64,000 bases of DNA from an uncultured virus (IMG/VR IMGVR_UViG_3300003320_000087) (lineage: Duplodnaviria; Heunggongvirae; Uroviricota; Caudoviricetes), in IMG/VR virus record IMGVR_UViG_3300003320_000087, positions 62,001 to 126,000 of that record; one strand, written 5' to 3'. Positions 8,871 to 40,229 of this stretch are shown piece by piece. The notes under the pieces were generated by a model. It searched no databases and was not told the DNA's origin. It was given only the letters and a program-made list of their open reading frames with translations. Every line of letters starts with the position of its first letter. Within the stretch, counting starts at the first letter, position 1. Position numbers and translations under genes: made by a program.

Positions 8871-8955
8871 GGAAGTGGTCCGGTTGGTCGAGGACATCGC
8901 CTTGAAAGCGACTGAGGTGTAAAAGCCTTCGGGGGTTCGATTCCCTTCGCTTCCG
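8871..8955 (+). tRNA. tRNA-Ser(TGA)
   Basis: GGAAGTG/CGCTTCC, CTTGAAA loop, long variable arm, G73. Confidence 0.88.
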
Positions 8956-8956
8956 C

Positions 8957-9154
8957 ATGGAAAACCTAACGATTCATACAGATGCTCCAAGTCCAACATC
9001 GTATCAACTGGCAATGCTTATTGCAATCCAGCACAAGCCGATGTATCTTGGTACAGTATCTAGAGCAGAAATTGACAGACGGCGGGCTGCAAACAAGAGG
9101 GCGCGTCTACAGCGCAGAGCAAATAGAAGGTTTGACACGACACGTCGTTCGTGA
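8957..9154 (+). CDS. Small Arg-rich hypothetical protein, starts 2 nt after tRNA-Ser
   Basis: ATG follows discriminator+C; Y.GTV..AEIDRRRAANKRAR motif. Confidence 0.6.
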   Translation: MENLTIHTDAPSPTSYQLAMLIAIQHKPMYLGTVSRAEIDRRRAANKRARLQRRANRRFDTTRRS

Positions 9155-9233
9155 TAAGGTTTTACAAGATGGTCGGCAAGCAGGTAAATGAGAGCTACAG
9201 GAGCTTGAACAACAACACTCTCTACCATCACAT

Positions 9234-9308
9234 GCCTCGTGGGACTGCTGGGATGGTCACTTCCCTGTCAAGGAAGACAACAGGCGGGTTCAATTCCCGT
9301 ACGGGGCG
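9234..9308 (+). tRNA. tRNA-Asp(GTC)
   Basis: GCCTCGT/ACGGGGC; CTTCC-CTGTCAA-GGAAG. Confidence 0.85.
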
Positions 9309-9328
9309 CTTTAATTTTAGGAGTTAAA

Positions 9329-9541
9329 ATGGCAACGTCATGGTGGAATGTAACTGGAAAGTACACCTGTCTAAATGACAAGAAAAAGAAGGTTACAGAG
9401 CGATTTAACGTTGACTTTCAGGCGACAAGCAAGACTGATGCGGTCAATAAGGCCAAGAAGTATTTCGAAGACATGAAGAATGCTAATAGAGCAGCAAATT
9501 ATAGCAATTTCACTAGTATCAAGGCGAGGCCGGTAAAGTAA
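9329..9541 (+). CDS. Hypothetical protein
   Basis: AGGAG SD then ATG (MATSWW...). Confidence 0.6.
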   Translation: MATSWWNVTGKYTCLNDKKKKVTERFNVDFQATSKTDAVNKAKKYFEDMKNANRAANYSNFTSIKARPVK

Positions 9542-9735
9542 TGGCAAAGAAGTTTGAGCTGTCTGACCTTGACAAGCAGGGATGGTCTTCTGTTAAGGTT
9601 CATGGAAAGTGGCGGGGTCTGGTCGAAAAGACTGGCCGTAGTAACTACGCACTTCACCTTGGCAAGAATGACGTAACTAACTTTAAGACAAAGAAGTCAC
9701 TTGAGACGTGGCTCACAGAGAAGTGGGCATCATAA
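9541..9735 (+). CDS. Hypothetical protein
   Basis: Coupled TAATG start. Confidence 0.6.
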   Translation: MAKKFELSDLDKQGWSSVKVHGKWRGLVEKTGRSNYALHLGKNDVTNFKTKKSLETWLTEKWAS

Positions 9736-9788
9736 TTAAATATGGCGAAAATACCGCTAGCGAGTAGGCTAGGGGGATATCGCAAAGC

Positions 9789-9855
9789 GTTCGGGTCGAT
9801 GAATATCGTTTATCTATGGTGAAGAATACGACGATAATCACTACCATATCCGTGC
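9789..9855 (+). ncRNA. Minimal Y-RNA-like ncRNA Y4
   Basis: TTCGG-GTCGA-TGA-ATATCGT-TTATC...ACGATA-ATCA..CATAT-CCG. Confidence 0.6.
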
Positions 9856-9864
9856 ACTTACTTA

Positions 9865-10029
9865 TAACCCCTGAAGATTTTTGGGTCGGATGTTTTTCGG
9901 TTATCTTACTGTGAATGAGGAGTTTCGGGTTCGAATCCCGACGGGTCCACTCTTGGGCCTGTGGTGTAATTGGCAACACGAAAAACCCGATGGACGCTTA
10001 TATATCCAAAAACCAATCTTCAGGGGTTA
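9865..10029 (+). ncRNA. YrlA-type Y RNA Y5 inside a 15-bp flanking stem
   Basis: TTTGG-GTCGGA..TCGG-TTATC; T arm CGGG-TTCGAAT-CCCG, GGGTCCA/TGGGCCT, D arm GTGTAATTGGCAACAC; TATAT-CCAAA; flanks TAACCCCTGAAGATT/AATCTTCAGGGGTTA. Confidence 0.85.
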
Positions 10030-10055
10030 AAGCTTGTCTAAAAAAGGAGATGAAG

Positions 10056-10244
10056 ATGTCACAGTATCCTCGCAAGGAAAAGGTCACGGTTAACCTGGTT
10101 CGCAAGCAGAATGATGAGACTTACCGAATTGTTGATGATAGGGAGATGTTTCATCTGAAGGCACATCGACTTGTTGTTCCTGAGGGGAAGATGCGGGAAG
10201 ATAGCAAGTTTATTGGTAGTTTCTACATTGAGCTGGAGAAGTAA
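10056..10244 (+). CDS. Hypothetical protein
   Basis: AAGGAG SD upstream of ATG. Confidence 0.6.
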   Translation: MSQYPRKEKVTVNLVRKQNDETYRIVDDREMFHLKAHRLVVPEGKMREDSKFIGSFYIELEK

Positions 10245-10612
10245 TGATTAATGCCTGGGGCCAAAAGATTGAGGTTGGCTCAGTAGTTTATCGTGGTGCC
10301 CGTGACGGTAGCTCTTCTACTTATAAGATTGGAAAGGTTCTTTCTCTTAAGGATGGAAAGCCGCCGCGAATTGACTGGCTTTTTGAGCAGTCTGGGCGAT
10401 GGATTGATGTGGGTGACAAGAGATTCTACTATCCATTCCCATGTAGGCTTAAGAATAGTCAGGGTTCACCTAGTGCCGATAGCCTAGTCCTGATTGATGT
10501 AGACCTTGATGAAATTGAACGTCAGGCTGATTTCTTTGGCACCATTGATTACAATACAAAGTTTCGTGATGAAGAGGAATTTCATCACGCACTTGATTCT
10601 CATAGGATGTGA
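10244..10612 (+). CDS. Hypothetical protein (SH3-like N-terminus)
   Basis: GQKIEVGSVVY...KIGKV pattern; coupled start. Confidence 0.6.
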   Translation: MINAWGQKIEVGSVVYRGARDGSSSTYKIGKVLSLKDGKPPRIDWLFEQSGRWIDVGDKRFYYPFPCRLKNSQGSPSADSLVLIDVDLDEIERQADFFGTIDYNTKFRDEEEFHHALDSHRM

Positions 10613-10680
10613 GAATCCGGCCGGATTACGGCCAAGCTTAAATCCAATGCCCAAAATGGGCCGAAAAGAAAGGAAAGAAA

Positions 10681-12312
10681 ATGACGAATTCTCTTGGAAA
10701 GTACGCTGCTTCTCAGAAGCAGGAGCGTGTTGCAACTCCGCCTAACCGTAGGACTCCTGGTCGTACAGATGAGGTAATGAACAACACGGGCGGGTTTACG
10801 TTTAAGGTGTCCGACAAGGACAGGCTTGAGCGATTTCTGATTCTTGGTACTGATAAGGGTACGTATTACGTTGATGAGCCTAAGCTCACTGAGCAGAATG
10901 TCAAGGTTGTAACAGACCTTATTCGCAAGGATGAGCGTATGGTTGTTGATACGGCTGTTGATGTATCTGTAAATGGTCGAGCGCTTAAGAATTCTCCTGC
11001 ACTCTTCACTCTGGCCAAGGTCATGACTGAGGGTAAGGATAAGGCTTATGCTCGTGCGGCTGTTCAGAAGGTTGCTCGTACTTCTACGCACCTGTATGAG
11101 TACGGAAACTACATTGAGTCGCTTGGTGGCTGGGGTCGTTCAAAGCGGCAGTCTGTTGCGGGTTGGTATGAGTCTAAGGACCCTAGCGACCTTGCGTATC
11201 AGGCTGTGAAGTACCGTCAGCGAAATGGCTGGGAGCACCGGGATTTGTTCAGGCTGTCTCACCCCAAGGGTATTGACCCATACGTGGGAGCTTTTATCCT
11301 TGGCAAGGAGTCTGATGCTGTTCCGACGTTCAATGGTCCTGATTACATTGCGGGATTCAAGACTCTTCAGGCTGCAAAGTCTGAGAAGGAAGTTCTTGAT
11401 GCTCTTGAGCGATTCCCGTACATGCCTTGGGAGGCCCTTCCTACTCAGTTCCACAAGAACGTGAAGGTTTGGCAGACGCTGTTTTACCAGGGTAGCCTTC
11501 GGGGCCAGGCACTTGTCCGGAACATCACCCGCCTTGCGCGAATGGGTGCTTTCGATGACATGGTGTTTGCGGCTGACTATGCAGAGCGCCTTGCTGATGG
11601 TAAGATGATTGAGAAGACTCGTCTTCACCCAATCAACTACCTAAATGCAGTTGTTGTGCATGAGGAGGGTCAGGTTGACCGGAAGCCCGGCTATTCTTGG
11701 TCCTATGGACGCAACAAGAATTGGAAGACTAACGGCAAGATTGTGGATGCTCTCAATGAGGGATTCCACCTTGCTTTCAAGAGTGTTGTTCCTGCGGGTA
11801 AGAGGACTCTTGTTGCAACGGATGTTTCTGGTTCAATGAGCCAGGCTGCTATTGGTCTCGACCTTTCTTGTGCTCAGGTTTCTGCTGCTGTTGCTATGAC
11901 GGTTGCTCGTACAGAGCCTTATAGTGATATTGTGGGATTTGCTGATACCATCAGCGACCTTGGTATTACTGGAAAGACATCTCTTTCTTCTGCAATGCAG
12001 AAGGTTCAGAGTTGGAACTTTGGTTCTACCAATCCTGCTGCTGCAATTCAGTATGCTCAGCGAAAGGGAATTGCGGTTGACACGTTCGTCATTATCACTG
12101 ATAATGAAGTGAACAGTGGAACTGTAAAGCCTTTCCAGGCTCTGAAGACCTACCGTGACAAGACTGGAATCGACGCGCGACTTGCTGTTCTGGGAGTTGC
12201 TGCTACTGATTTCACAATTGCGGATGGAACAGATAAGGGAATGATGGACTTCGTTGGCTTTGACAGCAACGCACCTCGGGCCCTAGCTGATTTTTCCGCA
12301 GGTCGTCTGTGA
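10681..12312 (+). CDS. Ro60/Rsr-like TROVE-domain RNA-binding protein with vWA domain
   Basis: NNTGGFTF, RLERFLILGT..GTYY, GWGR, KYRQRNGWEHRDLFRLSH, vWA MIDAS DVSGSM, ITDNE, VGFD. Confidence 0.93.
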   Translation: MTNSLGKYAASQKQERVATPPNRRTPGRTDEVMNNTGGFTFKVSDKDRLERFLILGTDKGTYYVDEPKLTEQNVKVVTDLIRKDERMVVDTAVDVSVNGRALKNSPALFTLAKVMTEGKDKAYARAAVQKVARTSTHLYEYGNYIESLGGWGRSKRQSVAGWYESKDPSDLAYQAVKYRQRNGWEHRDLFRLSHPKGIDPYVGAFILGKESDAVPTFNGPDYIAGFKTLQAAKSEKEVLDALERFPYMPWEALPTQFHKNVKVWQTLFYQGSLRGQALVRNITRLARMGAFDDMVFAADYAERLADGKMIEKTRLHPINYLNAVVVHEEGQVDRKPGYSWSYGRNKNWKTNGKIVDALNEGFHLAFKSVVPAGKRTLVATDVSGSMSQAAIGLDLSCAQVSAAVAMTVARTEPYSDIVGFADTISDLGITGKTSLSSAMQKVQSWNFGSTNPAAAIQYAQRKGIAVDTFVIITDNEVNSGTVKPFQALKTYRDKTGIDARLAVLGVAATDFTIADGTDKGMMDFVGFDSNAPRALADFSAGRL

Positions 12313-12362
12313 TTAATGAACCCCGCTGTTTTTCGGCGGGGTTCAAGCTTTAAGGAGATAAT

Positions 12363-13295
12363 ATGTATTTTGGGGTTGGAGACGTGTATGTAAATATCTC
12401 TCGAAAATCCATATCGGTCAAGCCTAAGTTTGAACCCCTTGGTCCAACAGACCTTTATGAAGCAGAATGGCTACTTGAGGTAAGGGCAATGGATGCCGAG
12501 TTTTGGATTACTGGAAAGGCATCACATGCTGCTCCAATGGAAATTATTACGTCATGTCTTTTGGCGGGTTTGAAGAAAGTAGCAGAGCCATATATTTTCA
12601 ATGCTGCTTGTGCTAGAATAGAATCTCAGTTTGGATTTGCTGTAGATAGATGGATTTCTCCAGATATTGCTAATGTTGTTTCTCAAACCTTCAGCACATA
12701 CGGTGTTGATTTTGAGGTAGTCATCATTCCAACTATCTTTGCCACACTTGTTGGTGAACCAAAAATTACAGCGAATTACATTGAGGATATTCCAGAAATT
12801 AGACTTGATATGCATGTTAATGGAATGAAATCAAGTCTTAATTTTAGTATTGAGTTGTGGGAATTGAGTTTTGAAGAATGTATGGAGATTGCAAAGTTCA
12901 AATTCCTAGAAAGTCTTTATAAAGAACACCCTGGACTAAGCCACTTGTGGACTCAAATCAGATATAATTGGCAAGATATGGGTCAGATGAGTGACCAAGG
13001 TGTCGCTTGGTTTAATAAGATTCAAGGTAGCAGTAGCAGTTGGCTTCCTGATAAAAGTAATCAGCATGTAGGCAGTAAGCAAATTGTCTCCCATACGGAA
13101 GACAGGCGAGTAAGAGAACTGCCGGGTCTTAATGAACAGGTAAAGCATCCTGAATCGGGGAAGACAACAACGGTAAGAGCTGCTATTATTAGTCTTAACG
13201 ATAGCTACAAGTGGTCAAGAGAAAAGATTGCTGATTGGCTTGATACGCTTGATATCGATTTGCAATTTAAGGTGAGTAATAATGAACAAGATTGA
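12363..13295 (+). CDS. Hypothetical protein
   Basis: Long ORF with AAGGAG SD; C-terminal IISLND..KWSREKIADWLD motif. Confidence 0.65.
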   Translation: MYFGVGDVYVNISRKSISVKPKFEPLGPTDLYEAEWLLEVRAMDAEFWITGKASHAAPMEIITSCLLAGLKKVAEPYIFNAACARIESQFGFAVDRWISPDIANVVSQTFSTYGVDFEVVIIPTIFATLVGEPKITANYIEDIPEIRLDMHVNGMKSSLNFSIELWELSFEECMEIAKFKFLESLYKEHPGLSHLWTQIRYNWQDMGQMSDQGVAWFNKIQGSSSSWLPDKSNQHVGSKQIVSHTEDRRVRELPGLNEQVKHPESGKTTTVRAAIISLNDSYKWSREKIADWLDTLDIDLQFKVSNNEQD

Positions 13296-13488
13296 TGAGA
13301 AGGCTGAAGAGCTAGCCAAGGTGATTGACGACATTGGTATGAGTGTGTATACTGGTTACACTCTGGCAGATGCGATTCGTGAAGGCTCTAAGGTTTCTAC
13401 TCAGGAGTATGGTTGGGGCGATGGCGAGACAGCTTGTGCACTAACCAGTGCGGTTATTGCTGCTAAGGCTCGTGGCTACGTCGATTGA
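13282..13488 (+). CDS. Hypothetical protein
   Basis: Overlapping start; TLADAIREG..W..G..ACAL motif. Confidence 0.6.
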   Translation: MNKIDEKAEELAKVIDDIGMSVYTGYTLADAIREGSKVSTQEYGWGDGETACALTSAVIAAKARGYVD

Positions 13489-13576
13489 CACGCGGCGGGT
13501 TCTGTAGTAAGATGTACTTATAAGTAAACGAGATAGCCCAATAGAGGGACGGCAAAGCCGGTAAATCTATCTCTAT

Positions 13577-13650
<74 letters not shown>

Positions 13651-13676
13651 CTTCCAAAATAAAAGGAGATTATAAA

Positions 13677-13817
13677 ATGGCTAAGGTAAATACTAGGGTT
13701 ACTCTTCCCGATGGTCGTAGTGGTGTTACGGTTGGTCCTGTTGACAATAAGGGTAAGCAGGAAGTCTGGCTTAAGCCTGGTAAGTCTGTTAGCGTTCCAG
13801 CTAAGGATTTGAAGTAA
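13677..13817 (+). CDS. Small SH3-like protein (46 aa, not in ORF track)
   Basis: AAGGAG SD; MAKVNTRVTLPDGRSGVTVG... Confidence 0.55.
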   Translation: MAKVNTRVTLPDGRSGVTVGPVDNKGKQEVWLKPGKSVSVPAKDLK

Positions 13818-14006
13818 TTTTCGGCGGGTTCATTGCGAACCCGCAAGCTTGACAGACCGTACATCTGTCATTTTCACTGTAGTTTAGGAATACTCGTATA
13901 TAAAACACTCAACCTAGGATAAGAGAGAAGTGTTAGCTGCTTGGGCGCACCAGTGACGTTTAGTGAATCGTAATCACTCCCTGTAGTTCGGGTAAGAGCT
14001 ACACTT

Positions 14007-14079
14007 GCCTCGGTAGCACAATGGATAGTGCAGTTGACTTCTAATCAACAGGTTGCAGGTTCGAGTCCTGTCCGGGGTA
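14007..14079 (+). tRNA. tRNA-Arg(TCT)
   Basis: GTTGA-CTTCTAA-TCAAC; canonical arms. Confidence 0.92.
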
Positions 14080-14086
14080 CTTTTTA

Positions 14087-14352: not shown

Positions 14353-14916
14353 ATGCCTAGAAGAAAATTTTTCTATGATACTGAGTTCCACGAAGATGGA
14401 AATACCATTGACCTCATCTCTATCGGAATTGTCCGGGGTGATGGCAAAGAGTATTATGCAGTATCATCAGAAGCAGATTACAGAAGAGTTTATGAGAATA
14501 GTTGGCTCATGAATCATGTTATGAATACTATTCCTCATCTAGTTGTTGAGATTCCTAATGATGGCGGGTTTACTGTGGTTCCAACAGGGCCACACGTAAA
14601 ATCCCGGGCGGAAATCAGAGAAGACATCATGGCATTTGTAAGCGAAACTCAAAACGAATTCAATGACCCACATGGTGAAGCAAAGGCTGAGCTATGGGCA
14701 TGGTATGGTGATTATGACCACGTTGCTTTGTGTCAGCTCTTTGGTAAGATGATTGATTTGCCAGAAAGTTTCCCAATGTTTACAAGAGATTTGAGACAAC
14801 ATTGGGAATACAAGGGTTATCCTGAACTTCCTAAGCAGGAAGAGGGAGAGCATAACGCCTTGGATGACGCAAAGTACAACAAGATTATGTGGGAATACCT
14901 AGAGGGTCTGAACTAA
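14353..14916 (+). CDS. 3'-5' exoribonuclease, RNase AS/Rv2179c-like DEDDh
   Basis: FFYDTEFHEDG.TIDLISIGIV, ELWAWYGDYDHV.LCQLFG, HNALDDA. Confidence 0.85.
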   Translation: MPRRKFFYDTEFHEDGNTIDLISIGIVRGDGKEYYAVSSEADYRRVYENSWLMNHVMNTIPHLVVEIPNDGGFTVVPTGPHVKSRAEIREDIMAFVSETQNEFNDPHGEAKAELWAWYGDYDHVALCQLFGKMIDLPESFPMFTRDLRQHWEYKGYPELPKQEEGEHNALDDAKYNKIMWEYLEGLN

Positions 14917-15464: not shown

Positions 15465-15465
15465 G

Positions 15466-18538: not shown

Positions 18539-18611
18539 GGCTCTTAAGTGTTAAAAGTTGGCACGTCGGATTGAAGGCCCGAAAGAGTTGGTGCGATACC
18601 AACAGGAGCCA
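18539..18611 (+). tRNA. tRNA-Phe(GAA), atypical T loop
   Basis: GGCTCTT/AGGAGCC; TTGAAGG loop; T loop TGCGATA. Confidence 0.7.
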
Positions 18612-18612
18612 C

Positions 18613-18762
18613 ATGGTAAATATCAAGAAGACGCCAGTATATAGGGCAGAGTCCAAAATTGAGGCTGAATCTTGGGTTGCCTCAACTGGCAAGAAAAGAT
18701 ATCCTGGTATAGAGCTGATTGTTCGGAAGCAGGGTAATAGTTGGCACGTTTATAAGGGGTAG
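18613..18762 (+). CDS. Small hypothetical protein, starts 2 nt after tRNA-Phe
   Basis: ATG after discriminator+C; MVNIKKTPVY... Confidence 0.55.
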   Translation: MVNIKKTPVYRAESKIEAESWVASTGKKRYPGIELIVRKQGNSWHVYKG

Positions 18763-20792: not shown

Positions 20793-20869
20793 GCCCTAGT
20801 ATGCCCTCTGGCTTCGAACCAGTGGAAAGGCTAATGGACTACATGGGGGTTCGAATCCCTTCTGGGGCA
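20793..20869 (+). tRNA. Rearranged tRNA-Arg(TCG): D-loop-like sequence lies 3' of the anticodon arm
   Basis: GCCCTAG/CTGGGGC, CTGG-CTTCGAA-CCAG soon after the acceptor, then GGCTAATGGACTACAT, canonical T arm. Confidence 0.65.
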
Positions 20870-20870
20870 C

Positions 20871-21059
20871 ATGGCTAAAGCAAGAAGAGCAAAGAGCGGT
20901 AATAAGGTTACCATTATTGTTGGTGAGCATGATGGTGAAAAGGGTATCGCTCTTGAAGATGGAGAAAACCTTAATTCTATTAGAGTAAGACTTACAACTG
21001 GACCTAATTCTGGAAGAGTGGTAAGAATTACGACTGGAAATTATATTGTAGGCGGTTAG
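20871..21059 (+). CDS. KOW/SH3-like small protein, starts 2 nt after the tRNA
   Basis: GNKVTIIVGEHDGEKG KOW motif. Confidence 0.65.
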   Translation: MAKARRAKSGNKVTIIVGEHDGEKGIALEDGENLNSIRVRLTTGPNSGRVVRITTGNYIVGG

Positions 21060-21200: not shown

Positions 21201-21302
21201 GCGCATAGATAAATGGCGGTACTGTGGTTCAACTCCATAGGTCTAGGGGCTCTAGTTTAAAATTCGGCGGAAGCCTGAAGTTCGATTCTTCAATCTATGT
21301 GC
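21201..21302 (+). ncRNA. Structured RNA with two T-arm hairpins
   Basis: GCGCATAGAT/ATCTATGTGC closure; CTGTGG-TTCAACT-CCATAG and TGAAG-TTCGATT-CTTCA. Confidence 0.55.
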
Positions 21303-21305: not shown

Positions 21306-21377
21306 GCTCTTGAAGTTCAACGGATGAACAAGTCTCTCCTAAAGACTAGGTTGCAGGTTCAAATCCTGTCAGGAGCA
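21306..21377 (+). tRNA. tRNA-Arg(CCT)
   Basis: AGTCT-CTCCTAA-AGACT. Confidence 0.88.
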
Positions 21378-21378
21378 C

Positions 21379-21573
21379 ATGGCTAATACACGAAAGATGA
21401 TTGGTGCATATTTTGGCGGGGACAAGAAAAAGAACTGGATTGGTTCTGCCCCAACAAAAGCACTAATAGAACGTCTTGTTGAATCTCATATGCATGTTAC
21501 GGGTAGAGAACGTAAAGAATATAAAACATTTAATTACAAGGATGACCCTGAAAAGCTGGGGCCACCAACATAA
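21379..21573 (+). CDS. Small hypothetical protein between tRNA-Arg and tmRNA
   Basis: ATG 2 nt after the tRNA; TAA abuts the tmRNA 5' end. Confidence 0.6.
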   Translation: MANTRKMIGAYFGGDKKKNWIGSAPTKALIERLVESHMHVTGRERKEYKTFNYKDDPEKLGPPT

Positions 21574-21870
21574 GGGCCTGCTTGGTTTCGACTTTGCTGG
21601 ACTGGAATATAGACGCAGCCGTTCTTTGGTAAGAGAACTAAAACAGACCAAAACCATAAATGCAAACTCTAAGAATGCATTCGCCCTTGCAGCGTAATTG
21701 CTGCTGATGGCCGGGTTTGTGGATGACCTTGGAACAGAACATCCACGAAAAACATTGCCTTGTGGCAAACGTGAAGATATTGTGTAAGACTCTTTAGAGT
21801 GATTGACATGGCTGTTATTCGGATATATGCTAGGTAGTGAAGGACAGGGGTTCGACTCCCCTCAGGTCCA
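21574..21870 (+). ncRNA. ssrA: tmRNA, tag ANSKNAFALAA (21662-21697)
   Basis: 5' GGGCCTG..GGTTTCGAC; 3' GGACAGGGGTTCGACTCCCCTCAGGTCCA; G3.U; ATAAAT-GCA resume context; ALAA end. Confidence 0.93.
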
Positions 21871-21886
21871 CAAGTAAAGGATTGAA

Positions 21887-23733: not shown

Positions 23734-23888
23734 GTCCCTGTAGCTTAAAAGGAAGAGCGCAGTAAAAACGGAGACTGGTCATGATAGGATGGTTGCAGAA
23801 GCACCGAATGGCTTTAGCGGGTCTGTAGGGAAGCGCGTTATCCAAGCCTGTCTAACATTGGGTGTGAGTTCGAATCTCATCGGGGACA
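23734..23888 (+). ncRNA. tRNA-like RNA with a ~90-nt structured insert replacing the anticodon loop
   Basis: GTCCCTG/CGGGGAC-A, D arm TAGCTTAAAAGGAAGAGC, CAGT/ATTG stem, T arm GTGAG-TTCGAAT-CTCAT. Confidence 0.7.
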
Positions 23889-23905
23889 CAAGTAAAGGGG
23901 ATTAT

Positions 23906-24396: not shown

Positions 24397-24802
24397 CCTG
24401 GGAAGTCATGTATTGGTAAGAATTTGAGATGTGGGCATGACGAGAGCGTATGGTAGGGAAGGCGCTCAAGCTATGTTATAGTTATGGGATTGAAAATCAA
24501 GAATGAATAAAAAGGATTGCCCCCACAAAAGAATTAGAAATATTGAAAATGTGGGTAAGGAAAAAGTCAAATCTTCTTCATGGAAGAAGAGTGTTTGCAT
24601 TGATTGCAAGACTACTTTTAGAGGATTGAATGGTAAAGATAAATGAGTCTTTTTAAAAGGAAGTATCCATTCAAAAAGAAGGATTGTCCGCATATGCATA
24701 TCAGAGACATTTATGGAGATGAAATTATTGCGGCCGGTGGTAAGCGCTCTTATTGTCTAGATTGCGGAACATCGTTTAAGGGACTGGGTGGAAGGAGCTA
24801 AA

Positions 24803-25849
24803 ATGGTACATGTATCACAGATTTTCTCCGTCGATGATTTGCGTCATGAGATGGATGAAGGTTGGGTTCGTTCTCAGGTTAACGAAGATAACACTCTGTC
24901 AGTGTATAATTACACTGAGGCAGCGCAGTATAAGCGTCGCTGGAATAATGTAACGCTGAATTGCCGGGGCTTGATTCTCGACAACTATATGAACATTGTT
25001 GCTCGTCCATGGAAGAAGTTTTTTAACTTTGGTGAACGCCCCCTCTTGTTTTCAACAGATGACCCTGTTGAGGTGACTGATAAGAAGGATGGCTCACTAG
25101 GTATTCTTTATAGACATCCTATGACTGGTGATTGGAAGATTGCTACTCGCGGTTCCTTCCTTTCTGAACAAGCAATTCATGCAACGAAGGTATGGGATGA
25201 CAAGTATAGTCATATTGTCATTGCAAATGAAGGCTTGACAGTTCTATTCGAGATTATCTATCCAGATAATCGCATTGTTCTTGAGTATGACTTTGACGAC
25301 CTGGTCTTGCTTGGGTCTGTACAAAACAAGTATGGATGGTACTATGGTCCTCAAGAGACAGCCGGAATGATTAATTGGCCCGGACCAGTCACAGAGGTGT
25401 TTGAGTACCGTACGCTCAATGAGTGCTTCGGAGTCCACAGAAAAAATGCTGAGGGCTTGATTATTCGCGCGGGTAGTGAGATGGTCAAGTTGAAGCAGGA
25501 AGACTACGTGGCTTTGCACAAGCTAGTCACTGGTCTGAATGAAAAGGCTGTGTGGGAGCGCTTGAAGGCAGGCGAGACACGTGATAGTATCTGTGCATCG
25601 CTTCCGGATGAGTTCCATGGATTTGTTGACAATGTGGCTGATGACCTTGAAGAAAAGTTCCGGGTAATCTACTTGACAGCACATGATGAGTACTGTAAGG
25701 TTCTCAACAAGATGCCAGTCAAGTACACAAGGAAGCAGTTCGAACTTGAGGCTCTGAAGACAAAGAATCATTCATTGCTGTTTTCGTTCCTTGACAACAG
25801 GCCAGTGTATGAGTCAATATGGGATATGATTCGTCCTAAGGGTGAGTAA
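24803..25849 (+). CDS. RNA ligase, Rnl1 (T4 RnlA-like)
   Basis: CRGLI..ARPWKKFFN, KKDGSL motif I, ATRGSF, FEII, EG, KLK. Confidence 0.88.
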   Translation: MVHVSQIFSVDDLRHEMDEGWVRSQVNEDNTLSVYNYTEAAQYKRRWNNVTLNCRGLILDNYMNIVARPWKKFFNFGERPLLFSTDDPVEVTDKKDGSLGILYRHPMTGDWKIATRGSFLSEQAIHATKVWDDKYSHIVIANEGLTVLFEIIYPDNRIVLEYDFDDLVLLGSVQNKYGWYYGPQETAGMINWPGPVTEVFEYRTLNECFGVHRKNAEGLIIRAGSEMVKLKQEDYVALHKLVTGLNEKAVWERLKAGETRDSICASLPDEFHGFVDNVADDLEEKFRVIYLTAHDEYCKVLNKMPVKYTRKQFELEALKTKNHSLLFSFLDNRPVYESIWDMIRPKGE

Positions 25850-26825: not shown

Positions 26826-27088
26826 ATTACGAAGAGATAATTGAAGGTTATAATTCTCTAAGGGAAATCTGTCTAAAGCTTGCTAAGCAAAATAACGGCA
26901 GGCTTATGGGTGCAGATTCATGGCTTCAATATGCTATTTCAGAAGGAGATATCACACTGTGGTTCTATGAGAATGGAATTGAATGTAGTGGATATACCTA
27001 CACCTCTCAGACAATGAGTGACGAGTCGTTTTCATTTAGAATTCCGATGGAATTGATTGAGGAAGAATATGCTAGAGCTGGTAATTAA
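26822..27088 (+). CDS. Hypothetical protein
   Basis: ATGA-coupled ORF. Confidence 0.55.
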   Translation: MNYEEIIEGYNSLREICLKLAKQNNGRLMGADSWLQYAISEGDITLWFYENGIECSGYTYTSQTMSDESFSFRIPMELIEEEYARAGN

Positions 27089-27506
27089 CCGGGGTGTTCC
27101 TGGAAGCGGCAAGTCAACATATGCTCGATGGTGGGTTTCTCAGGGAACGAAGGAAAATCCACGGGCAAGGGTGAACCGTGATGACATTCGGCAGCAGCTT
27201 TATGGAGTTGATTTTGGTCATCCCATTGATGAGACTGTTGTAACTGCTGTTGAGCATGCTATGATTCGTGCAGTGCTGGAGCGGGGCGTTTCTGTGATTG
27301 TGGATGATTGTAATATTTCACAGAAGTATATCACTACATTTACAAAGATTGGCAGAGAATTCGACGCCGATATCAATGTGAATACCGTTGACGTGTCTCT
27401 TGGAACTGCACTCGAACGTAATCGTAAGCGTCATGATGAAGGTGGCAGATTCGTTCCAGAGGATGTCATTATCAATATGTACAACAATATGCATGGAGTC
27501 AGTTAA
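27069..27506 (+). CDS. Polynucleotide kinase (PseT kinase domain only, AAA_33)
   Basis: RGVPGSGKST, NRDDIR, VIVDD.N, ALERN.KR, VPEDVI. Confidence 0.8.
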   Translation: MLELVINRGVPGSGKSTYARWWVSQGTKENPRARVNRDDIRQQLYGVDFGHPIDETVVTAVEHAMIRAVLERGVSVIVDDCNISQKYITTFTKIGREFDADINVNTVDVSLGTALERNRKRHDEGGRFVPEDVIINMYNNMHGVS

Positions 27507-30513: not shown

Positions 30514-31188
30514 ATGAACGTACTATTTGTAACTGGTGCTGGTATTTCGGCCAACGCAGGAATTAAGACCTATCGGGATGGTAGCTCATCGTGGACTGAC
30601 GGAGACCTTGAGCAAAAGTCTCACGCCTCACGATATGGAAACCACCTAGATGAGCTGTGGGATAAACACTGGGGCCCCATGAAAAAGGCCATGGATGCTG
30701 CTCAGCCTACCAAGACTCATCTTGCTATTGCTGAGTTTCAGAAGAGTAACCCAAGCATCATTGCGACTCAGAACATCGATAACTTGCATGAGCGTGCTGA
30801 TTCTGATAACGTTGCTCATCTACATGGAAGCATGGTTGTCAGGTGTTTGAGATGTAAGCAGACTGACCTTGATGCATCGTGGTTTAAGGGTGCACCATTT
30901 TGTCCTAACTGCCTATCTACAAAAACCCGGCCAGATGTGGTATTGTTTGGTGAGAAGCTGAATCTAAAGGTGTTTAATGCACTTGAGGGTTTTGCTAAGC
31001 ATGAAGCGGATGTCATTGTTGCAATTGGAACATCTCTGAATGTATTTCCAGCGGCGGGTTTGGTGATGGATAATATCTCAAAGTCTATCATTATCAACAA
31101 GGAAAAGACACCGTTTGACAAGTACGCATATAAGGTGTTTAATCAGGACTGTGATTCAGTAATCGATGAAGTTTTGGAGTCTCTGTGA
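30514..31188 (+). CDS. Sir2/CobB-family NAD-dependent deacylase
   Basis: TGAGIS..GI.TYR, TQNID.LHERA, LHG, CxxC...CxxC, RPDVVLFGE, IGTSL.V.PAA. Confidence 0.92.
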   Translation: MNVLFVTGAGISANAGIKTYRDGSSSWTDGDLEQKSHASRYGNHLDELWDKHWGPMKKAMDAAQPTKTHLAIAEFQKSNPSIIATQNIDNLHERADSDNVAHLHGSMVVRCLRCKQTDLDASWFKGAPFCPNCLSTKTRPDVVLFGEKLNLKVFNALEGFAKHEADVIVAIGTSLNVFPAAGLVMDNISKSIIINKEKTPFDKYAYKVFNQDCDSVIDEVLESL

Positions 31189-34166: not shown

Positions 34167-34221
34167 TCGCGGCGGGCTTTATGCCCGCAAGCTTCCTAAG
34201 ATATCTAATAAGGAGTAATAA

Positions 34222-35184: not shown

Positions 35185-35595
35185 TTGATTCCGCCCCCTG
35201 AATTGGGGGCAAGCTTTCTAATAAAGGAGAAGGAAATGCTATTCTACATTCAAGAACGTTCGACTGGAAAGCCTTGCCGACTCGACAGGGATGATAATAT
35301 TGTTCCATGCGATGACTTTGCCGATATGGTAATCATTCGTGATATGGAATACGCAAGAGGTCTTGTGGCAAACGACTACAGGTTTTGTGCAAGGGTATTC
35401 TTCGGGCAGATTATCTAAGGAGGTATATTTATGCGAGAATTTGTACGCAAGCTGATGGATAGGGATTGGTACCCTGAAGACGATGTTCCAGAATTTTCTA
35501 CGATTGAAGAAGAGGACTTCTGGAAGCCGGGCGGATGGATTGATAATAGGTCACACTGGCAACAGTATGACGAAATGCCATGGAATGGATGAGTA

Positions 35596-36369
35596 ATGAA
35601 GGTTATGGTCCTTGGGGACACACATGGTGAGACTCAGTGGCTGAAGAATATGGTTAATAAGGCCAAGCGAATGGGTTGTGACCGAATTCTTCAGGTTGGC
35701 GATTTTGGTATTTGGACTCACGAAGCAGAGGGTCACCGCTTTCTTGATACTGCAAATGAGGAACTACGACGAAATGGTTTGAAGTTGTATTTTCTCGGCG
35801 GGAATCATGAAAACTGGGACCACCTCAATTGGTGGGAAAAGAACAACGCGAAGTCTTATCACGGACACGTATATGTTAGGTCTCACATTCTTTATACCGG
35901 GCGAGTTAATCGTTGGGTATGGGGAGAAAAGGGTTCTGAGAAAGTTTTTCAGGTTGTAGGTGGTGCTGTTTCTGTAGACAAGAATCATCGTACAGTTGGA
36001 AAGACTCTGTGGCTTGATGAGGAAATTCCTGAGCGGGTTGTTTATGGACTTGAGAAGGCTAACCGTCCATGTGATTATCTGTTCACACACGATGCACCTA
36101 CCTGTGTTCCGATGAGCAATTTGAAGCCTGACATTGATTCTGCTAGGCATCGTGGATATATGGACCGAATTGGGCGGGCTACCCGGCCGAACCTTTGGTT
36201 CCATGGCCACTATCATAAGTGGATGGAATATTCCTTTATGCACCAGCAGGGCTATTCATTTGTTTATGGGCTTGACCGCGATTTCCAATTTTACAGTTAT
36301 GTGATTTTGGACACAGATTCTGATAGCGTAAAGATGGCAACTGGCAAGGTTATCGAGCACGGGAATTGA
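35596..36369 (+). CDS. Calcineurin-like metallophosphoesterase
   Basis: GDTHG, GDFG, GNHE, THDAP, HGHYH. Confidence 0.88.
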   Translation: MKVMVLGDTHGETQWLKNMVNKAKRMGCDRILQVGDFGIWTHEAEGHRFLDTANEELRRNGLKLYFLGGNHENWDHLNWWEKNNAKSYHGHVYVRSHILYTGRVNRWVWGEKGSEKVFQVVGGAVSVDKNHRTVGKTLWLDEEIPERVVYGLEKANRPCDYLFTHDAPTCVPMSNLKPDIDSARHRGYMDRIGRATRPNLWFHGHYHKWMEYSFMHQQGYSFVYGLDRDFQFYSYVILDTDSDSVKMATGKVIEHGN

Positions 36370-36456
36370 GTCATTTGCCATTTGAAAATAAACCTTCTAT
36401 AATTGACTTTATGGAGGTTGAAGCCTCCGAAAGTTTGAAGGAGGTGTAACATTCAA

Positions 36457-36894
36457 ATGGCAAATGATGAAAAGGCTCCAGAGTCACGTATCCTTTCTAA
36501 GGAAGAGCGTGCTGAGGCACTAAAGGCTTCTGATGCTAAGGCTGCAAAGCAGGAGTACAAGCCTTACACGTCAGTTGACGCCGTTGAACCACATGGTCCA
36601 CATGGTGTTGAGGAGGCTGCCGCTAAGCGTGCTAAGGATGCTGGTGTGACTGACCCTGCCTTCGTTAATTACGAAGAGGCTCTAGAGAATTACCAGGCCC
36701 GTCCTGACGTTGAGCCACTAAATGAGCGTCGTGCTCGTGAGGGTGGTCGTGATTTCAACGCAGCTTCATTCCGTCGTGAGGTTGGAGGAACGGACAATGC
36801 AGGAGTAACCACTTCTGAGGACGTTTCTACAGATTCTGATGACGACAAGACAGCAAACAAGACTTCCGCTGTTCGTAAGCCTGCATCTAAGTAA
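36457..36894 (+). CDS. Hypothetical charged protein
   Basis: GGAGGTG SD; low-complexity charged ORF. Confidence 0.6.
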   Translation: MANDEKAPESRILSKEERAEALKASDAKAAKQEYKPYTSVDAVEPHGPHGVEEAAAKRAKDAGVTDPAFVNYEEALENYQARPDVEPLNERRAREGGRDFNAASFRREVGGTDNAGVTTSEDVSTDSDDDKTANKTSAVRKPASK

Positions 36895-37315
36895 GTCTAA
36901 GAAGTTTGGTGAAAACCCGGTGTTGACAAAGCGCCGGGTTTTTGCTTATACTAGAAAGCCAGGAGGGAAAATGAACTGGTGGTGTAAGAACTGTCATCTA
37001 TGTGGAAGGCCAAAGGAATGAAGTACCAAGAGGCTGTCAGAGTTTGGGGAGCAAAGAGACTTTCAACAGACAAGAGGCATGTTAACCCTGATGATGTCAT
37101 GGTATTCATGGACTTTGATGAAGGATTCGCGTGTTGCGGTGGAACCCAAGAAGGCTGTTATTGTTCTTATGCATATGGTCCTTCAGCAAATGTGGTAATT
37201 TCTGCCGGGAATTTGAGGGAGACCATCAATGTAGAAGACTTCAACTTTGTTGAAGTTGTAGGAGAAATTGTCAAGGCTGCCGATGGCATCTTGACAGACT
37301 AGGGCTTAGGCCCAT

Positions 37316-37390
37316 AACCCGGTAGCTCAGTTGGTTTAGAGCAGCTTCCTTTTAAGTTGCAGGTCGTGGGTTCAAGTCCCACTCGGGTTA
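37316..37390 (+). tRNA. tRNA-Lys(TTT), two T.T mismatches in the anticodon stem
   Basis: AACCCGG/TCGGGTT; GCTTC-CTTTTAA-GTTGC. Confidence 0.8.
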
Positions 37391-37460
37391 CTCTTGACAC
37401 AGACGTGTCAACTTTGTTAAAATACTTGTATGATGCAAATTGAACGAAAGGTAAAGACCT

Positions 37461-37694
37461 ATGCCTAATCTTGGTTACAAGGCGGCACACCGATTTGTCC
37501 GTGAGCAGCGTTCGCTTGGAAACAACGTTCGTTGGGATGGATGGGATATGGTGTTTTGGAAGCCAACGCGCCATGGCTTCAACAGTGTTAACGGAGCATT
37601 TCTTAACGGCCGATGGGGCGTTGAGAGCAGGATTTCCGTTGATACTGACGGTGTGTGGAAGGTCCCTAATAAGAATGTCAAGTCTTCTCGATGA
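37461..37694 (+). CDS. Hypothetical protein
   Basis: Promoter and SD upstream; Trp-rich. Confidence 0.55.
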   Translation: MPNLGYKAAHRFVREQRSLGNNVRWDGWDMVFWKPTRHGFNSVNGAFLNGRWGVESRISVDTDGVWKVPNKNVKSSR

Positions 37695-37989
37695 ATTTGG
37701 ACTAGACCCTGACGATTTTGAATGGCAAGACTTGGCCTTGTGTGCTAATATGCCTACATCATTCTTTTACGATAAATATGAGACTGATGAAGAAACGGCA
37801 AAGGCAACTGACCAAGTCTGCCTTCATTGTCCAGTAATGAAACGGTGTTTCTTTGCAGGTGCAGACGGAGAGCACGGTGTTTGGGGCGGGGTTTATTGGA
37901 ATGGTGCTGGAAATCCAGAAAAGAATAGAAACTCTCACAAAACCCAAGAAATTTGGGATGAGATTCAAAGTGTGGTGAAAAACACATGA
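37675..37989 (+). CDS. WhiB-family Fe-S transcriptional regulator
   Basis: WQDLALC...C..CPV...C...GVWGG. Confidence 0.85.
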   Translation: MSSLLDEFGLDPDDFEWQDLALCANMPTSFFYDKYETDEETAKATDQVCLHCPVMKRCFFAGADGEHGVWGGVYWNGAGNPEKNRNSHKTQEIWDEIQSVVKNT

Positions 37990-38240
37990 CAAAATACACC
38001 ACTGAGATTCAGAGAATCTTCAAGGGTTTTAAGCCACCTTATCCAAATTTTATTGTAGATATTGTTGAATTCAATGATTATCTCTCTTTGAGAGTGTATA
38101 AAGACAACATTGAGTCATTTAGTGAGTCGCAGAAAGTAGCACTTGCAGAATATCTCTACAGGGTTAGAGATGCTATTAGGTCCGAAGTCAACTGCCACAT
38201 TGAGGGAGTTACCAATGCACCACCTTCTAGAAGAAACTGA
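37986..38240 (+). CDS. Hypothetical protein
   Basis: ATGA-coupled ORF. Confidence 0.55.
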   Translation: MTKYTTEIQRIFKGFKPPYPNFIVDIVEFNDYLSLRVYKDNIESFSESQKVALAEYLYRVRDAIRSEVNCHIEGVTNAPPSRRN

Positions 38241-38676
38241 CCGAATGACCCGGATTCATATGATTGATGAGAATGTTCCGGGTTGGCTTATCCAAGAGAA
38301 CGCATTTTTTTCGCGGGTCGCGTATGACTACCTTGGACACCATTATGAAATTGACGTTCTCAATGATGATTACATTGTTGTAGAACAGATTGGATATGAA
38401 AGCGATTGAGCGAAGTAGTATGCTACTGTTGTGGGGAGCAGCGCCATGAACTACGTGCGCACAAATCAAAACTTATTGCCGACAAAAAGTATATGTTCTG
38501 TTCTAAGTGTAAGGCTGCTGGTCATGAGCCTCGCTATGTTCTGATTCTTGTGGCCAGGGCGGAAGGAACAAATTCTGTTGCAGAATTTATTAGAGGCGGA
38601 AAGTATTGTGGGCAGGCTATTCTTGGGCGCGAGATGATTCCCTGACAATTGAAAAACGGGCGGGTTTTCCCGTCAA

Positions 38677-38753
38677 CCCCGGTTAGCTTAACTGGCAAAA
38701 GCGGCGTAGTTATAATACGTTGGTTGTGGGTTCGAATCCCGCACTGGGGACCA
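38677..38753 (+). tRNA. tRNA-Ile(TAT)
   Basis: CCCCGGT/ACTGGGG-A-CCA; GCGTA-GTTATAA-TACGT. Confidence 0.8.
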
Positions 38754-38803
38754 TAATAAATACGTAATTGGACATTTAAGTATTGCCAAGTTATACTTTT
38801 AAT

Positions 38804-39232
38804 ATGTCCAGACTAGTGAAATACGCTAGGAGTGTGTCCGAAAAACCGACAGAAGCTATCGAAGCAATTGTTGCTTTGGCTGTATTTTTGGCGGGGCTTT
38901 GGTTCCTTACTCCATATTATAAGCCATCTTCGTCTGTTCAGTCTCAGATTTGGGAAAGCGCACATATTCCTCAATATACTGGTGCTGTACAGATGGTTGT
39001 AGCAGGTCTTTTGCTATTTGCTCTGGTCAGAAAAGGTTGGGCAAGAAGGCAAATGATTCGTCGTCAGGCGACATTTGCCATTTTCATTCTCTATCTCTTC
39101 TACGGACTTTCCTCAACTATGATTCTAGGTTTGGGGAGGGTTTCATGGATTGCTACATTTGCACTGGCACTCATTTCAGGCGTGGCACATCTAAGGTTGA
39201 AGTGGGAGGAGGGTAATCATGCCAGAGATTAG
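38804..39232 (+). CDS. Membrane protein (about 4 TM), possible holin-like
   Basis: Four hydrophobic segments; coupled to a TM+coiled-coil gene. Confidence 0.55.
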   Translation: MSRLVKYARSVSEKPTEAIEAIVALAVFLAGLWFLTPYYKPSSSVQSQIWESAHIPQYTGAVQMVVAGLLLFALVRKGWARRQMIRRQATFAIFILYLFYGLSSTMILGLGRVSWIATFALALISGVAHLRLKWEEGNHARD

Positions 39233-39518
39233 TCAGGCGTGGCTTGCCCTGCTTGGGGCTTTGCTAGGTGGTTCAGGACTTAAGTTTATTGAGCATTGGC
39301 TTAGCCGTTCAAAGATTCGTGATGATGCTGCCGCGCAAATGAGGACTGAGCTTCGTGAAGAAATTAAGGGGCTTAGGGAAGAATTGCGCACAGTTGAAGA
39401 TGAACTTGATAAGTGGCGAGGCAAGTACTATGAACTTATGGACGAATTCATGAAGGCAAAGGGAGACCTTGCCGAGGCTTTGCGCAATGCACAGAACAAG
39501 GCGAATGGACAACCTTGA
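39219..39518 (+). CDS. N-terminal TM plus coiled-coil protein
   Basis: LALLGALLGGSG then heptad repeats. Confidence 0.6.
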   Translation: MPEISQAWLALLGALLGGSGLKFIEHWLSRSKIRDDAAAQMRTELREEIKGLREELRTVEDELDKWRGKYYELMDEFMKAKGDLAEALRNAQNKANGQP

Positions 39519-39997
39519 CCAGTGCAAGCGAGCGGAGCGCTATATCTCCGCATCTAAGAAGGGAGGTGTAAGTTTTGGCATATTATCAGATTTCCGGGTT
39601 TTACTATGATGATGATACAGACAATGTCTTTATCTATATCACTAAGCCTGTAGAAGTAGGATATGAGCATGCATTTGATGCACAGCCCGTCGATATTTAT
39701 GAGGCTCAGATTTTCCTAGATGGTAACTCCACGCTTATTCAGAAGTGGCGTCCACCATCTGTTGATGGTGAGGTTCCGGGTGGTATCTATGGAAGAGAGG
39801 CAGACCCAAGCGGTAACGTAATTCTTCCGCTTGAAGATGCACCTGAGTGACGCTTGACAGACCATAATGGTTTTGCTAAGATAGAACATGCGAGAGGGAG
39901 AAAGACCCTCAACGTCTGTCAGTAGGCGGAGGCACTAGACAAGAGCTAGTCGCTTAAGATATACTGAATGGAGAAGAACCGCCACAAAGGGTTCTAT

Positions 39998-40069
39998 GCC
40001 GCCATCGTATAACGGCTAGTACGTTGGGTTCTCAGTCCAGAAGTCGGGGTTCGATTCCCCGTGGCGGTA
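39998..40069 (+). tRNA. tRNA-Glu(CTC)
   Basis: GCCGCCA/TGGCGGT; TTCTCAG loop. Confidence 0.85.
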
Positions 40070-40070
40070 C

Positions 40071-40229
40071 ATGGCTAAGGATAAGTACAAAGTTGGAGAT
40101 TCTGTCCGTGTTGGTTATGAAGGTAAGCGATATGGTGCTAGAGTCATGAAGATTACCGGCAATAAGGCAAGAGTTAAGCTTAATGAAGGTCCTCACGCCG
40201 GAAAAGAATTTGATGTAAACATTGATTAA
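40071..40229 (+). CDS. Small SH3/KOW-like protein (52 aa, not in ORF track), starts 2 nt after tRNA-Glu
   Basis: MAKDKYKVGDSVRV...GPHAGKEF. Confidence 0.6.
   Translation: MAKDKYKVGDSVRVGYEGKRYGARVMKITGNKARVKLNEGPHAGKEFDVNID

Follow-up and report, generated by a model that had tools for sequence, protein, structure and literature searches.

In animal mitochondria, tRNAs punctuate the transcripts and are excised by RNase P and RNase Z/ELAC2. In bacteria, the 3' cut of tRNA precursors has been mapped on the host tRNAs of uninfected Streptomyces coelicolor with a method that captures 5'-monophosphate ends, and by our count of Table S4, 43 of the 44 rows place it right after C74 (PMC4681348), an assignment that we checked on Streptomyces tRNA ends. 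Seven of these C74 cuts precede an A; the exceptions are a cut also after N73 in 2 of the 44 rows and another site in 1. P. acnes uses the same cut site, yet without an obvious tRNase Z (PMC3848588). In mycobacteria, a 5'-terminal ATG or GTG is necessary and sufficient for leaderless initiation while TTG works with a Shine-Dalgarno (SD) sequence, a rule established on transcribed rather than processed 5' ends (PMC4633059). The literature that we searched, mostly outside subscription papers, yielded no paper on a leaderless mRNA made by a tRNA cut in bacteria or phages, and no name for the nuclease cutting after C74. Here we describe a window of 64,000 nt from a large phage in which small genes begin at exactly this position, suggesting that tRNA punctuation is likely to yield leaderless mRNAs in phages.

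Five tRNA genes run directly into small genes

Analysis of the window confirmed five N73-C-ATG-G junctions reported by the first-pass annotation, with the ATGs opening frames of 65, 49, 62, 64, and 52 codons and CCA encoded, as it had stated, at none of the five fused tRNAs. The elements are as follows.

8871..8956, + strand: tRNA-Ser(TGA), N73 G8955, encoded C74 8956, no CCA
8957..9154, + strand: 65-codon ORF, phrog_1622-like, basic
18539..18612, + strand: tRNA-Phe(GAA) with variant T loop, N73 A18611, C74 18612
18613..18762, + strand: 49-codon ORF behind tRNA-Phe
20793..20870, + strand: atypical tRNA-Arg(TCG), N73 A20869, C74 20870
20793-99/20862-68, + strand: acceptor of the atypical tRNA-Arg(TCG)
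20803-05, + strand: its strand X, paired with strand Y at 20829-31
20808-22, + strand: its anticodon arm, TCG at 20814-16
20833-44, + strand: its D-loop-like segment, GG at 20836-37, A20 at 20838
20845-61, + strand: its T arm
20871..21059, + strand: 62-codon KOW/SH3-like ORF
21306..21378, + strand: tRNA-Arg(CCT), N73 A21377, C74 21378
21379..21573, + strand: 64-codon ORF, stop codon adjoining the tmRNA
21574..21871, + strand: tmRNA
39998..40070, + strand: tRNA-Glu(CTC), N73 A40069, C74 40070
40071..40229, + strand: 52-codon basic ORF, weak SH3-like leads only

The five junctions are real and not a product of chance: 5 of the 32 C74-bearing ends in the window are fused (a binomial test gives p 4e-8 with trailer positions 76-84 of the family as background, and 3e-6 with every C of the region), and at each the tRNA 3' end directly adjoins a protein-coding start. 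The single C between N73 and ATG, present at all five, is the tRNA's own C74 and not a spacer. C occupies position 74 in all 30 ARAGORN-called window genes (29 tRNAs and the tmRNA) and in 739 of 782 candidate tRNA ends of 21 related phages (false calls included in the count). The G after ATG likewise holds at all five window sites and is no rule, as 35 unique ATG junctions carry 22 G, 7 T, and 6 A at this position; a requirement for G was rejected.

Homologs were found for all five fused ORFs. The 8957 ORF is fused in four phages and SD-led in nine others, 21-23 nt past the same tRNA-Ser. The 18613 ORF, which contains no further in-frame start codon downstream, is fused to tRNA-Phe in eight relatives (with GTG in one) and SD-led in Coruscant and Mandalore; the Blueeyedbeauty gene past tRNA-Phe is not a homolog and was removed from the SD-led list. 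Homologs of the 20871 ORF are fused to a canonical tRNA-Arg(TCG) in four relatives, the 21379 ORF has a 79% identical homolog in Francob that is SD-led there, and metagenomes supplied two homologs of the 40071 ORF (76% and 69%). Two metagenome loci for its protein proved spurious.

Protein starts coincide with the mapped host cut

Conservation of the spacing in related phages, a check named in the first-pass annotation, was borne out by 740 tRNA ends from 21 phages, whose counts are not independent because the phages are related. An ATG at position 75 opens a frame of at least 30 codons in 48 of 50 cases, versus 1 of 35 at position 76; for GTG the values are 19/24 and 5/21, and TTG at 75 does so in only 6 of 39. 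ATG or GTG frames of 40 codons begin at 75 on 17 kinds of tRNA end, compared with 0-7 at positions 74 and 76-84. Fusion affects 67 of the 728 C74 ends in these phages, with five small genes in the present genome and one to six per relative, and fused starts also occur on atypical tRNAs and other T-arm elements. The 68 junctions sort into 28 BLAST families, which suggests that fusion arose many times. Position 75 is not the sole near-leaderless layout, given a minor class of conserved ORFs starting at 77-78 or 81, and in IMG/VR the contrast is weaker (31/58 vs 19/81). Outside the phage family, ATG at 75 occurs in 111 of 301 Streptomyces genomes, a count with no position-76 control, and 30 chromosome loci viewed by eye mostly showed hairpins after the ATG; on these 30 loci, host chromosomes hardly use the fused layout. 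Mycobacteriophage Maby2021 and a 6-kb stretch of A3Wally encode C74 and contain no fused frame.

The first-pass annotation had the precursor cut after N73 by RNase Z, leaving a near-leaderless C-AUG. The S. coelicolor maps instead place the cut after C74, and protein starts cluster at 75 with none at 74; the product would thus be fully leaderless, with AUG terminal. RNase Z is not established as the cutting enzyme, given the P. acnes precedent. The core idea, in which maturation of the tRNA 3' end generates the start of the mRNA, finds good support in this comparative evidence. Since many small genes of these large Streptomyces phages start exactly at the known cut of the host's tRNA precursors, trimming probably frees a message ready for translation.

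A different reading is that compaction or recombination sets genes at tRNA ends and that the uncut precursor is translated independently of an SD, with processing incidental. The dense cassette array of the region, the conserved starts at 77-81, and the lack of a canonical SD at many leadered genes of actinobacteria (53% in M. smegmatis, PMC6448022) fit this reading. It leaves unexplained the one-base precision (75 vs 76), the agreement with the mapped host cut, and the bias toward ATG and GTG but not TTG. In addition, the bases upstream of AUG are paired in the folded precursor at 5 of 5 window sites, and mycobacterial leadered initiation required an SD in reporters (PMC4633059). We therefore regard it as unlikely.

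Fused genes are conserved and lack SD and -10 signals

Judging from pN/pS between fused copies (0.21 overall and 0.25 in codons 2-16; 13 families, one pair each), the fused genes are under purifying selection. ATG and GTG exchange at position 75 among orthologs, and several fused genes have SD-led homologs in relatives without the fusion. These observations argue that the downstream frames are genuine SD-less genes. Were the ORFs untranslated and the junctions decaying genes after SD loss, the sparse tblastn matches among annotated phages (at most one for three of the five window ORFs, none for two) would be understandable. The selection acting on fused-only copies, the first 15 codons included, the start conserved through ATG/GTG exchange, and the existence of homologs for all five ORFs make decay the least probable reading considered here.

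Promoters within the tRNA genes, with transcription starting at the ATG, would produce ordinary leaderless mRNAs; leaderless mRNAs in Streptomyces usually arise from promoters (264 cases, PMC4681348), and the start-codon bias fits equally well. None of the 49 fused junctions carries TANNNT 5-8 nt before the start, whereas 7 of 402 non-fused ends and 18 of 158 spaced genes do; this test covers TANNNT and leaves a phage-specific promoter type outside it. A separate promoter would also be needed in each of 17 different tRNA sequences, and we consider this explanation very unlikely. Translational coupling was rejected, as no coupled ORF lies upstream of any of the 49 junctions.

Another proposal was that the G-rich 3' acceptor strand conceals an SD that becomes accessible once the tRNA loses its fold or an anticodon nuclease cleaves it, which would make the junction a tRNA-damage sensor. 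AGGAG does lie 3-4 nt before ATG at the window Phe and Arg(CCT) sites, the anti-SD score at the Phe site reaches -6.2 kcal/mol, and the phage carries genes for RNA ligases and a kinase-like protein, which pressure from anticodon nucleases would lead one to expect. However, fused junctions show no SD excess: their anti-SD pairing (median -2.2 kcal/mol) is no stronger than at non-fused ends (likewise -2.2, p 0.31) and is weaker than at spaced genes, whose median is -5.45 (p 1e-7). None of the 49 fused ends reaches -7, the Ser site scores only -0.5, and several fused tRNAs have pyrimidine-rich acceptor strands. The sensor is thus unsupported, and we judge it slightly less credible even than the internal promoters.

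A model of tRNA punctuation

In the punctuation model, the tRNA and the small gene would be transcribed as a single RNA, in which the bases 5' of AUG are predicted to be held in the acceptor and T stems, so that no ribosome-binding site would be accessible. The host tRNA 3' endonuclease, which cleaves directly after C74 in host tRNAs, would do the same in phage tRNAs, and the CCA-adding enzyme would supply the missing CA. A Pfam scan (E 1e-4) of 91 of the 107 listed ORFs of at least 120 codons recovered no phage-encoded RNase Z or CCA-adding enzyme; the 16 ORFs left out were mostly virion-region or overlapping frames, and ORFs below 120 codons lay outside the scan. The downstream RNA would begin with a 5'-monophosphate AUG or GUG, and actinobacterial ribosomes may read it as a leaderless message, as they do transcribed ends in mycobacteria. 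The junction would replace a spacer and SD, saving about 20 nt, and would couple small-protein synthesis to tRNA maturation. Against punctuation, 5'-monophosphate RNA may be quickly degraded.

The stop codon of the 21379 ORF adjoins the tmRNA, whose 5' end (the putative RNase P site) would set the 3' end of the message, giving it processing sites at both ends. A downstream tRNA-like element bounds the 3' end of only this one of the five window messages. Across the family, most stop codons lie 6-22 nt from the next tRNA, with nine cases at 0-1 nt, and for most messages the 5' end of a downstream tRNA does not set the mRNA 3' end.

An arm-swapped tRNA-Arg(TCG)

The gene at 20793-20870, annotated at first pass as tRNA-Arg(TCG), does have an acceptor stem, a T arm, and C74, and is not a canonical tRNA: ARAGORN at default settings and the Rfam tRNA model miss it. 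It combines a 7-bp acceptor, a 5-bp T stem, and a 7-nt anticodon loop with U33, and its anticodon arm precedes the D-loop, with the anticodon loop from base 20 and the GG-containing loop after it. Comparison of 14 sequences revealed 100% paired cells in the acceptor and T stems, and the 3-bp helix enclosing the anticodon arm covaries at 3 of 3 pairs, indicating a covarying architecture distinct from the standard tRNA. The same architecture occurs in 162 viral sequences, Arg and Ile only, none of which is called by ARAGORN. A20 is an identity base of tRNA-Arg. The base after GG is A in 68 of 68 Arg and U in 33 of 33 Ile/CAT sequences (unforced set), and the A20 of the 20793-20870 element agrees with its Arg anticodon. 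The arm-swapped tRNA takes the place of the canonical Arg isoacceptor where that is absent, an indirect sign that it may be charged and used in translation. No match to the arm-swapped model came up in 151 Actinomycetota genomes at E 1e-9, a search in which part of the candidates was scored and which had no positive control.

Comparison with known systems

The widest claim combines two parts. The first is that these phages have turned the host C74 cut into a switch for translation; this would be the first tRNA punctuation on the bacterial side for which a mapped cut coincides with the junction, and it would have evolved independently at many tRNAs. The second is that one of the punctuating genes encodes a functional tRNA of new architecture, with D-stem strands swapped and the anticodon arm transcribed before the D-loop; such tRNAs would be widespread in viruses, restricted to Arg and Ile, and overlooked by standard finders. 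We hold this combination to be an even bet. If true, a housekeeping tRNA-processing cut can license bacterial translation, and mitochondrial-style punctuation becomes directly testable in cultured phages with tractable hosts. The fused junction could serve directly as a reporter in the hunt for the actinobacterial nuclease behind the C74 cut, and annotation could adopt the rule that an ATG or GTG at position 75 of a tRNA marks a true start. If the arm-swapped tRNAs are charged, present counts of phage tRNAs are too low and another strand order can also yield the L shape; speculatively, the swap may be relevant to how phages evade the anticodon nucleases or modification enzymes of the host.

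As in animal mitochondria, tRNA genes adjoin protein genes, tRNA excision would leave leaderless mRNA, and one phage message is bounded on both sides. Unlike there, the setting is a bacteriophage in a bacterium, the cut would follow an encoded C74 rather than N73, only a few small genes per genome are involved, and these switch between SD-led and fused forms among relatives. Promoter-made actinobacterial leaderless mRNAs share the 5' ATG/GTG, the lack of an SD, and the small proteins (PMC4681348, PMC4633059), whereas the phage junctions lack a -10 box (0/49) and their 5' end would be a processed monophosphate. The C74 cut of S. coelicolor and P. acnes is the exact site that would expose the phage start codon, C74 being near-universal in phage tRNAs; the parts of these papers covered here treat it as tRNA maturation only, with no link to mRNA 5' ends (PMC4681348, PMC3848588).

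Allo-tRNAs and irregular phage tRNAs are likewise non-standard and missed by standard finders, and some occur in phages. In the part of PMC5389517 covered here, however, the acceptor branch of allo-tRNAs is 8/4 or 9/3 and their V arm is long, while the 20793-20870 element is 7/5 with the anticodon arm before the D-loop, and an allo-tRNA identity was rejected on this branch. Neither that part nor the other literature searched, mostly outside subscription papers, describes a swapped-arm tRNA. The plant mitochondrial t-elements, in the portion of PMC1920247 considered, also use tRNA-like folds to guide cuts that make mRNA ends, and differ in being non-decoding and mostly leaving long leaders. In E. 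coli, MazF processing similarly produces a leaderless message by endonuclease, yet it is toxin- and sequence-directed, stress-induced, and leaves a 5'-hydroxyl, whereas the phage case would rely on structure-directed housekeeping processing.

ORFs starting at tRNA 3' ends

The source virus has a genome of 129,916 bases, and its relatives are Streptomyces phages of the Stanwilliamsviridae, the nearest being the Faust, TunaTartare, and Gilson types. ARAGORN called 29 tRNAs and a tmRNA amid small ORFs in the window, all on the + strand. The five tRNA-C-ATG junctions described in the first-pass annotation were verified in the sequence, with the ATGs at 8957 (Ser(TGA)), 18613 (Phe), 20871 (Arg(TCG)), 21379 (Arg(CCT)), and 40071 (Glu(CTC)) opening ORFs of 65, 49, 62, 64, and 52 codons, respectively. 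The single C before each ATG is also present, but it is no spacer: an encoded C after the discriminator base N73 (C74) is found in 30/30 called genes of the window and in 739 of the 782 candidate tRNA ends of 21 phages (the window virus and 20 named relatives). The C is therefore part of the tRNA itself, which places the ATG at position 75. Such fusion is seen at 5 of the 32 C74-bearing window ends, many more than expected by chance (p 4e-8 with one null model and 3e-6 with another). Eight further ends, of tRNA or tmRNA genes in the window, precede a Shine-Dalgarno (SD)-like word with an ATG farther downstream; thus, fused and SD-led layouts coexist. The last base of the 21379 gene directly precedes the tmRNA, and stops abutting the next tRNA-type gene in this way are a minority in the phage family.

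A Ro60/TROVE gene lies at 10681-12312, with T-arm elements carrying a GGGTC...TTATC motif nearby (about 8480-8590, 8720-8800, and 9880-9980); these are probably several Y RNA-like genes, with weak YrlA matches below the cut-off at 8534-8589 (E 0.008) and 9922-9979 (E 0.77). T-arm or tRNA-like elements beyond the standard calls were observed at about 8385-8425, 21207-21302, and 62488-62564, the last having a non-standard loop and recurring in Beuffert and Limpid. SsgA-like, WhiB-like, and Sir2-like genes are located at 51529-51915, 37471-37989, and 30514-31188. Two RNA ligases, a kinase-like AAA_33 protein, and an Rv2179c-like 3'-5' exoribonuclease are encoded in or near the tRNA array, which suggests RNA repair and trimming:

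24788-25849, 27057-27506, 48565-49272, and 14353-14916: RNA ligase, AAA_33, and Rv2179c-like genes

Position 75 in related phages and beyond

For each relative, the tRNA region was surveyed in three overlapping stretches of 20 kb. Ends were identified from the T arm and acceptor pairing and with ARAGORN at relaxed settings, and 42 of the 782 candidates were removed (poor acceptor pairing, or T-arm-only calls without C74), leaving 740. Among these, ATG opens a frame of at least 30 codons in 48/50 cases at position 75 vs 1/35 at position 76, indicating that the spacing, whose conservation had been proposed as a check, is specific to position 75. The corresponding values for GTG are 19/24 and 5/21, and TTG at 75 opens such a frame in only 6/39. 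Fused junctions occur in all 21 phages (1-6 per phage; 67 of 728 C74 ends), counts that are low estimates, as the detector misses true ends such as several Phe genes. The 68 junctions with frames of at least 24 codons form 28 BLAST families, and a 40-codon frame is found at 75 on 17 kinds of tRNA end, against 0-7 kinds at neighbouring positions. The survey counts share ancestry, yet junctions distributed across so many tRNA types and protein families imply repeated origin. Some conserved genes, fewer in number, begin instead at 77-78 or 81. At about 23810-23889 in the window, an unassigned T-arm element ending A-C is followed by an SD-led gene, whereas in six relatives the corresponding element runs as C-ATG directly into an ORF. 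Persimmon (comparison locus L075, record 96383) has a tmRNA end joined through C-ATG to a frame of 24 codons.

Outside the family, among the IMG/VR matches listed (118 per position), ATGG opens 30 codons in 31/58 unique ends at 75 and in 19/81 at 76 (p 3e-4). Among 120 matches listed from prokaryotes, ATGG at 75 does so in 38 of 63 ends, with no control. Long frames start at position 75 in the bacterial chromosomal loci L366, L406, L367, L373, L439, and L454, and on inspection by eye they resemble metabolic enzymes. Streptomyces chromosomes seem to use the fused layout rarely.

Fused ORFs and their SD-led counterparts

Judged from their sequences, the fused ORFs are genes. Purifying selection was detected with a pN/pS of 0.21, and 0.25 for codons 2-16 (one fused-only pair per family, 13 families). 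Comparison with relatives gave 0.27-0.28 for the Ser ORF (fused copies), 0.33-0.52 for Phe, 0.26 for Arg(CCT), and 0.73-0.89, at saturating distance, for Arg(TCG). For the 40071 protein, annotated phages gave no match, and two metagenomic homologs were found (76% and 69% identity). The 20871 protein is KOW/SH3-like, with one homolog above the Pfam KOW cut-off; 2/15 other fused proteins scanned pass it, one being that homolog, so the fused cargo is mixed.

Four phages have the Ser(TGA) gene fused, and in 9 it lies 21-23 nt after the same tRNA and is led by TAAGGAG. SD-led copies are also found for the Phe gene (in Coruscant and in Mandalore), for the Arg(CCT) gene (Francob), and for a Tyr gene (Wakanda and Muntaha; fused in Byblos), indicating that the junction stands in for spacer and SD.

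Start mechanism

Pairing was scored with the anti-SD motif. The proposal that the acceptor strand acts as a hidden SD finds no support: fused starts (49 unique; median -2.2) pair as well as 402 non-fused ends (p 0.31), and more weakly than genes with a spacer (158; -5.45, p 1e-7). At 5/5 window sites, the bases preceding the start are predicted to be paired in the folded precursor. Neither a -10 box nor a coupled upstream ORF was found at any of the 49 starts. What the sequences establish is the layout, its position specificity, selection on the ORFs, the absence of an SD and of a -10 box, and exchange with SD-led copies.

The host cut site and the leaderless rule are taken from print. In S. 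coelicolor, for which Romero et al. 2014 (PMC4681348) provide a map of 5'-monophosphate ends, tRNAs that encode CCA are cleaved between the two Cs. We counted 43/44 rows of their Table S4 with a cut right after the C following the discriminator, and in 7 of these the next base is an A; 2 rows are also cut after N73 and 1 at another site. Comparison with Asn, Glu, Lys, and Leu ends of other Streptomyces confirmed that this C is C74. The same site is used in P. acnes, which has no obvious tRNase Z (PMC3848588). Cleavage after N73, as first assumed, is therefore not the host's rule. In mycobacteria, a 5'-end ATG or GTG is necessary and sufficient for leaderless initiation, and TTG starts are used behind an SD (Shell et al. 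2015, PMC4633059), the same codon bias as at phage position 75. Among the longer phage ORFs, 91 of 107 were examined, and none encodes a recognizable RNase Z or CCA enzyme. The tRNA and downstream ORF would be co-transcribed, the RNA cut after C74 as on host tRNAs, and the product translated as a leaderless mRNA, for which a 5'-monophosphate end would be enough.

A proposed arm-swapped tRNA-Arg

The element before ATG 20871 is called neither by default ARAGORN nor by Rfam tRNA, and its anticodon arm lies 5' of a D-loop-like segment:

20793-20870, + strand: arm-swapped Arg(TCG); similar comparison loci are L026:19716-19792, L069:3867-3943, L490:2995-3072, and L491-L681

It consists of acceptor 5' strand, UA, strand X, anticodon arm, strand Y (pairing with X), D-loop-like segment with GG, T arm, acceptor 3' strand, N73, and C74. 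Over 14 sequences, from which the structure was also drawn, 94% of cells pair, vs 32-53% in slid controls, and the X/Y helix has both-sided changes at 3/3 pairs. Among the 21 phages, 4/4 without canonical Arg(TCG) and 7/7 without canonical Arg(TCT) carry the arm-swapped form with that anticodon, and two without ACG/GCG carry it with ACG; for Ile(GAT), both forms occur in three phages. The stems are kept in 162 of 168 unique IMG/VR pattern matches, and ARAGORN calls none of these 162. The patterns left the anticodon unconstrained, yet every one is either Arg (129) or Ile/CAT (33), although patterns built from Arg and Ile members may miss other types; 84 encode CCA. The base after GG (unforced set) is A in 68/68 Arg and U in 33/33 others, which fits A20 as the identity base of Arg tRNA. 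These patterns point to a tRNA with swapped D-stem strands that would keep the L shape and is likely charged. The form was not found in the literature searched, including passages of PMC5389517, which is not proof of absence from print. This family of 162 unique viral sequences deserves its own study.

Comparison with mitochondrial tRNA punctuation

The layout is real and recurrent, and we consider it quite probable that it acts as a phage tRNA punctuation working like that of mitochondria. This is directly testable, and the arm-swapped tRNA adds to its importance. The phage junctions would work alike but are not a member of the mitochondrial system, since the cut would fall after C74, a minority of genes is involved, and the arrangement is usually one-sided.
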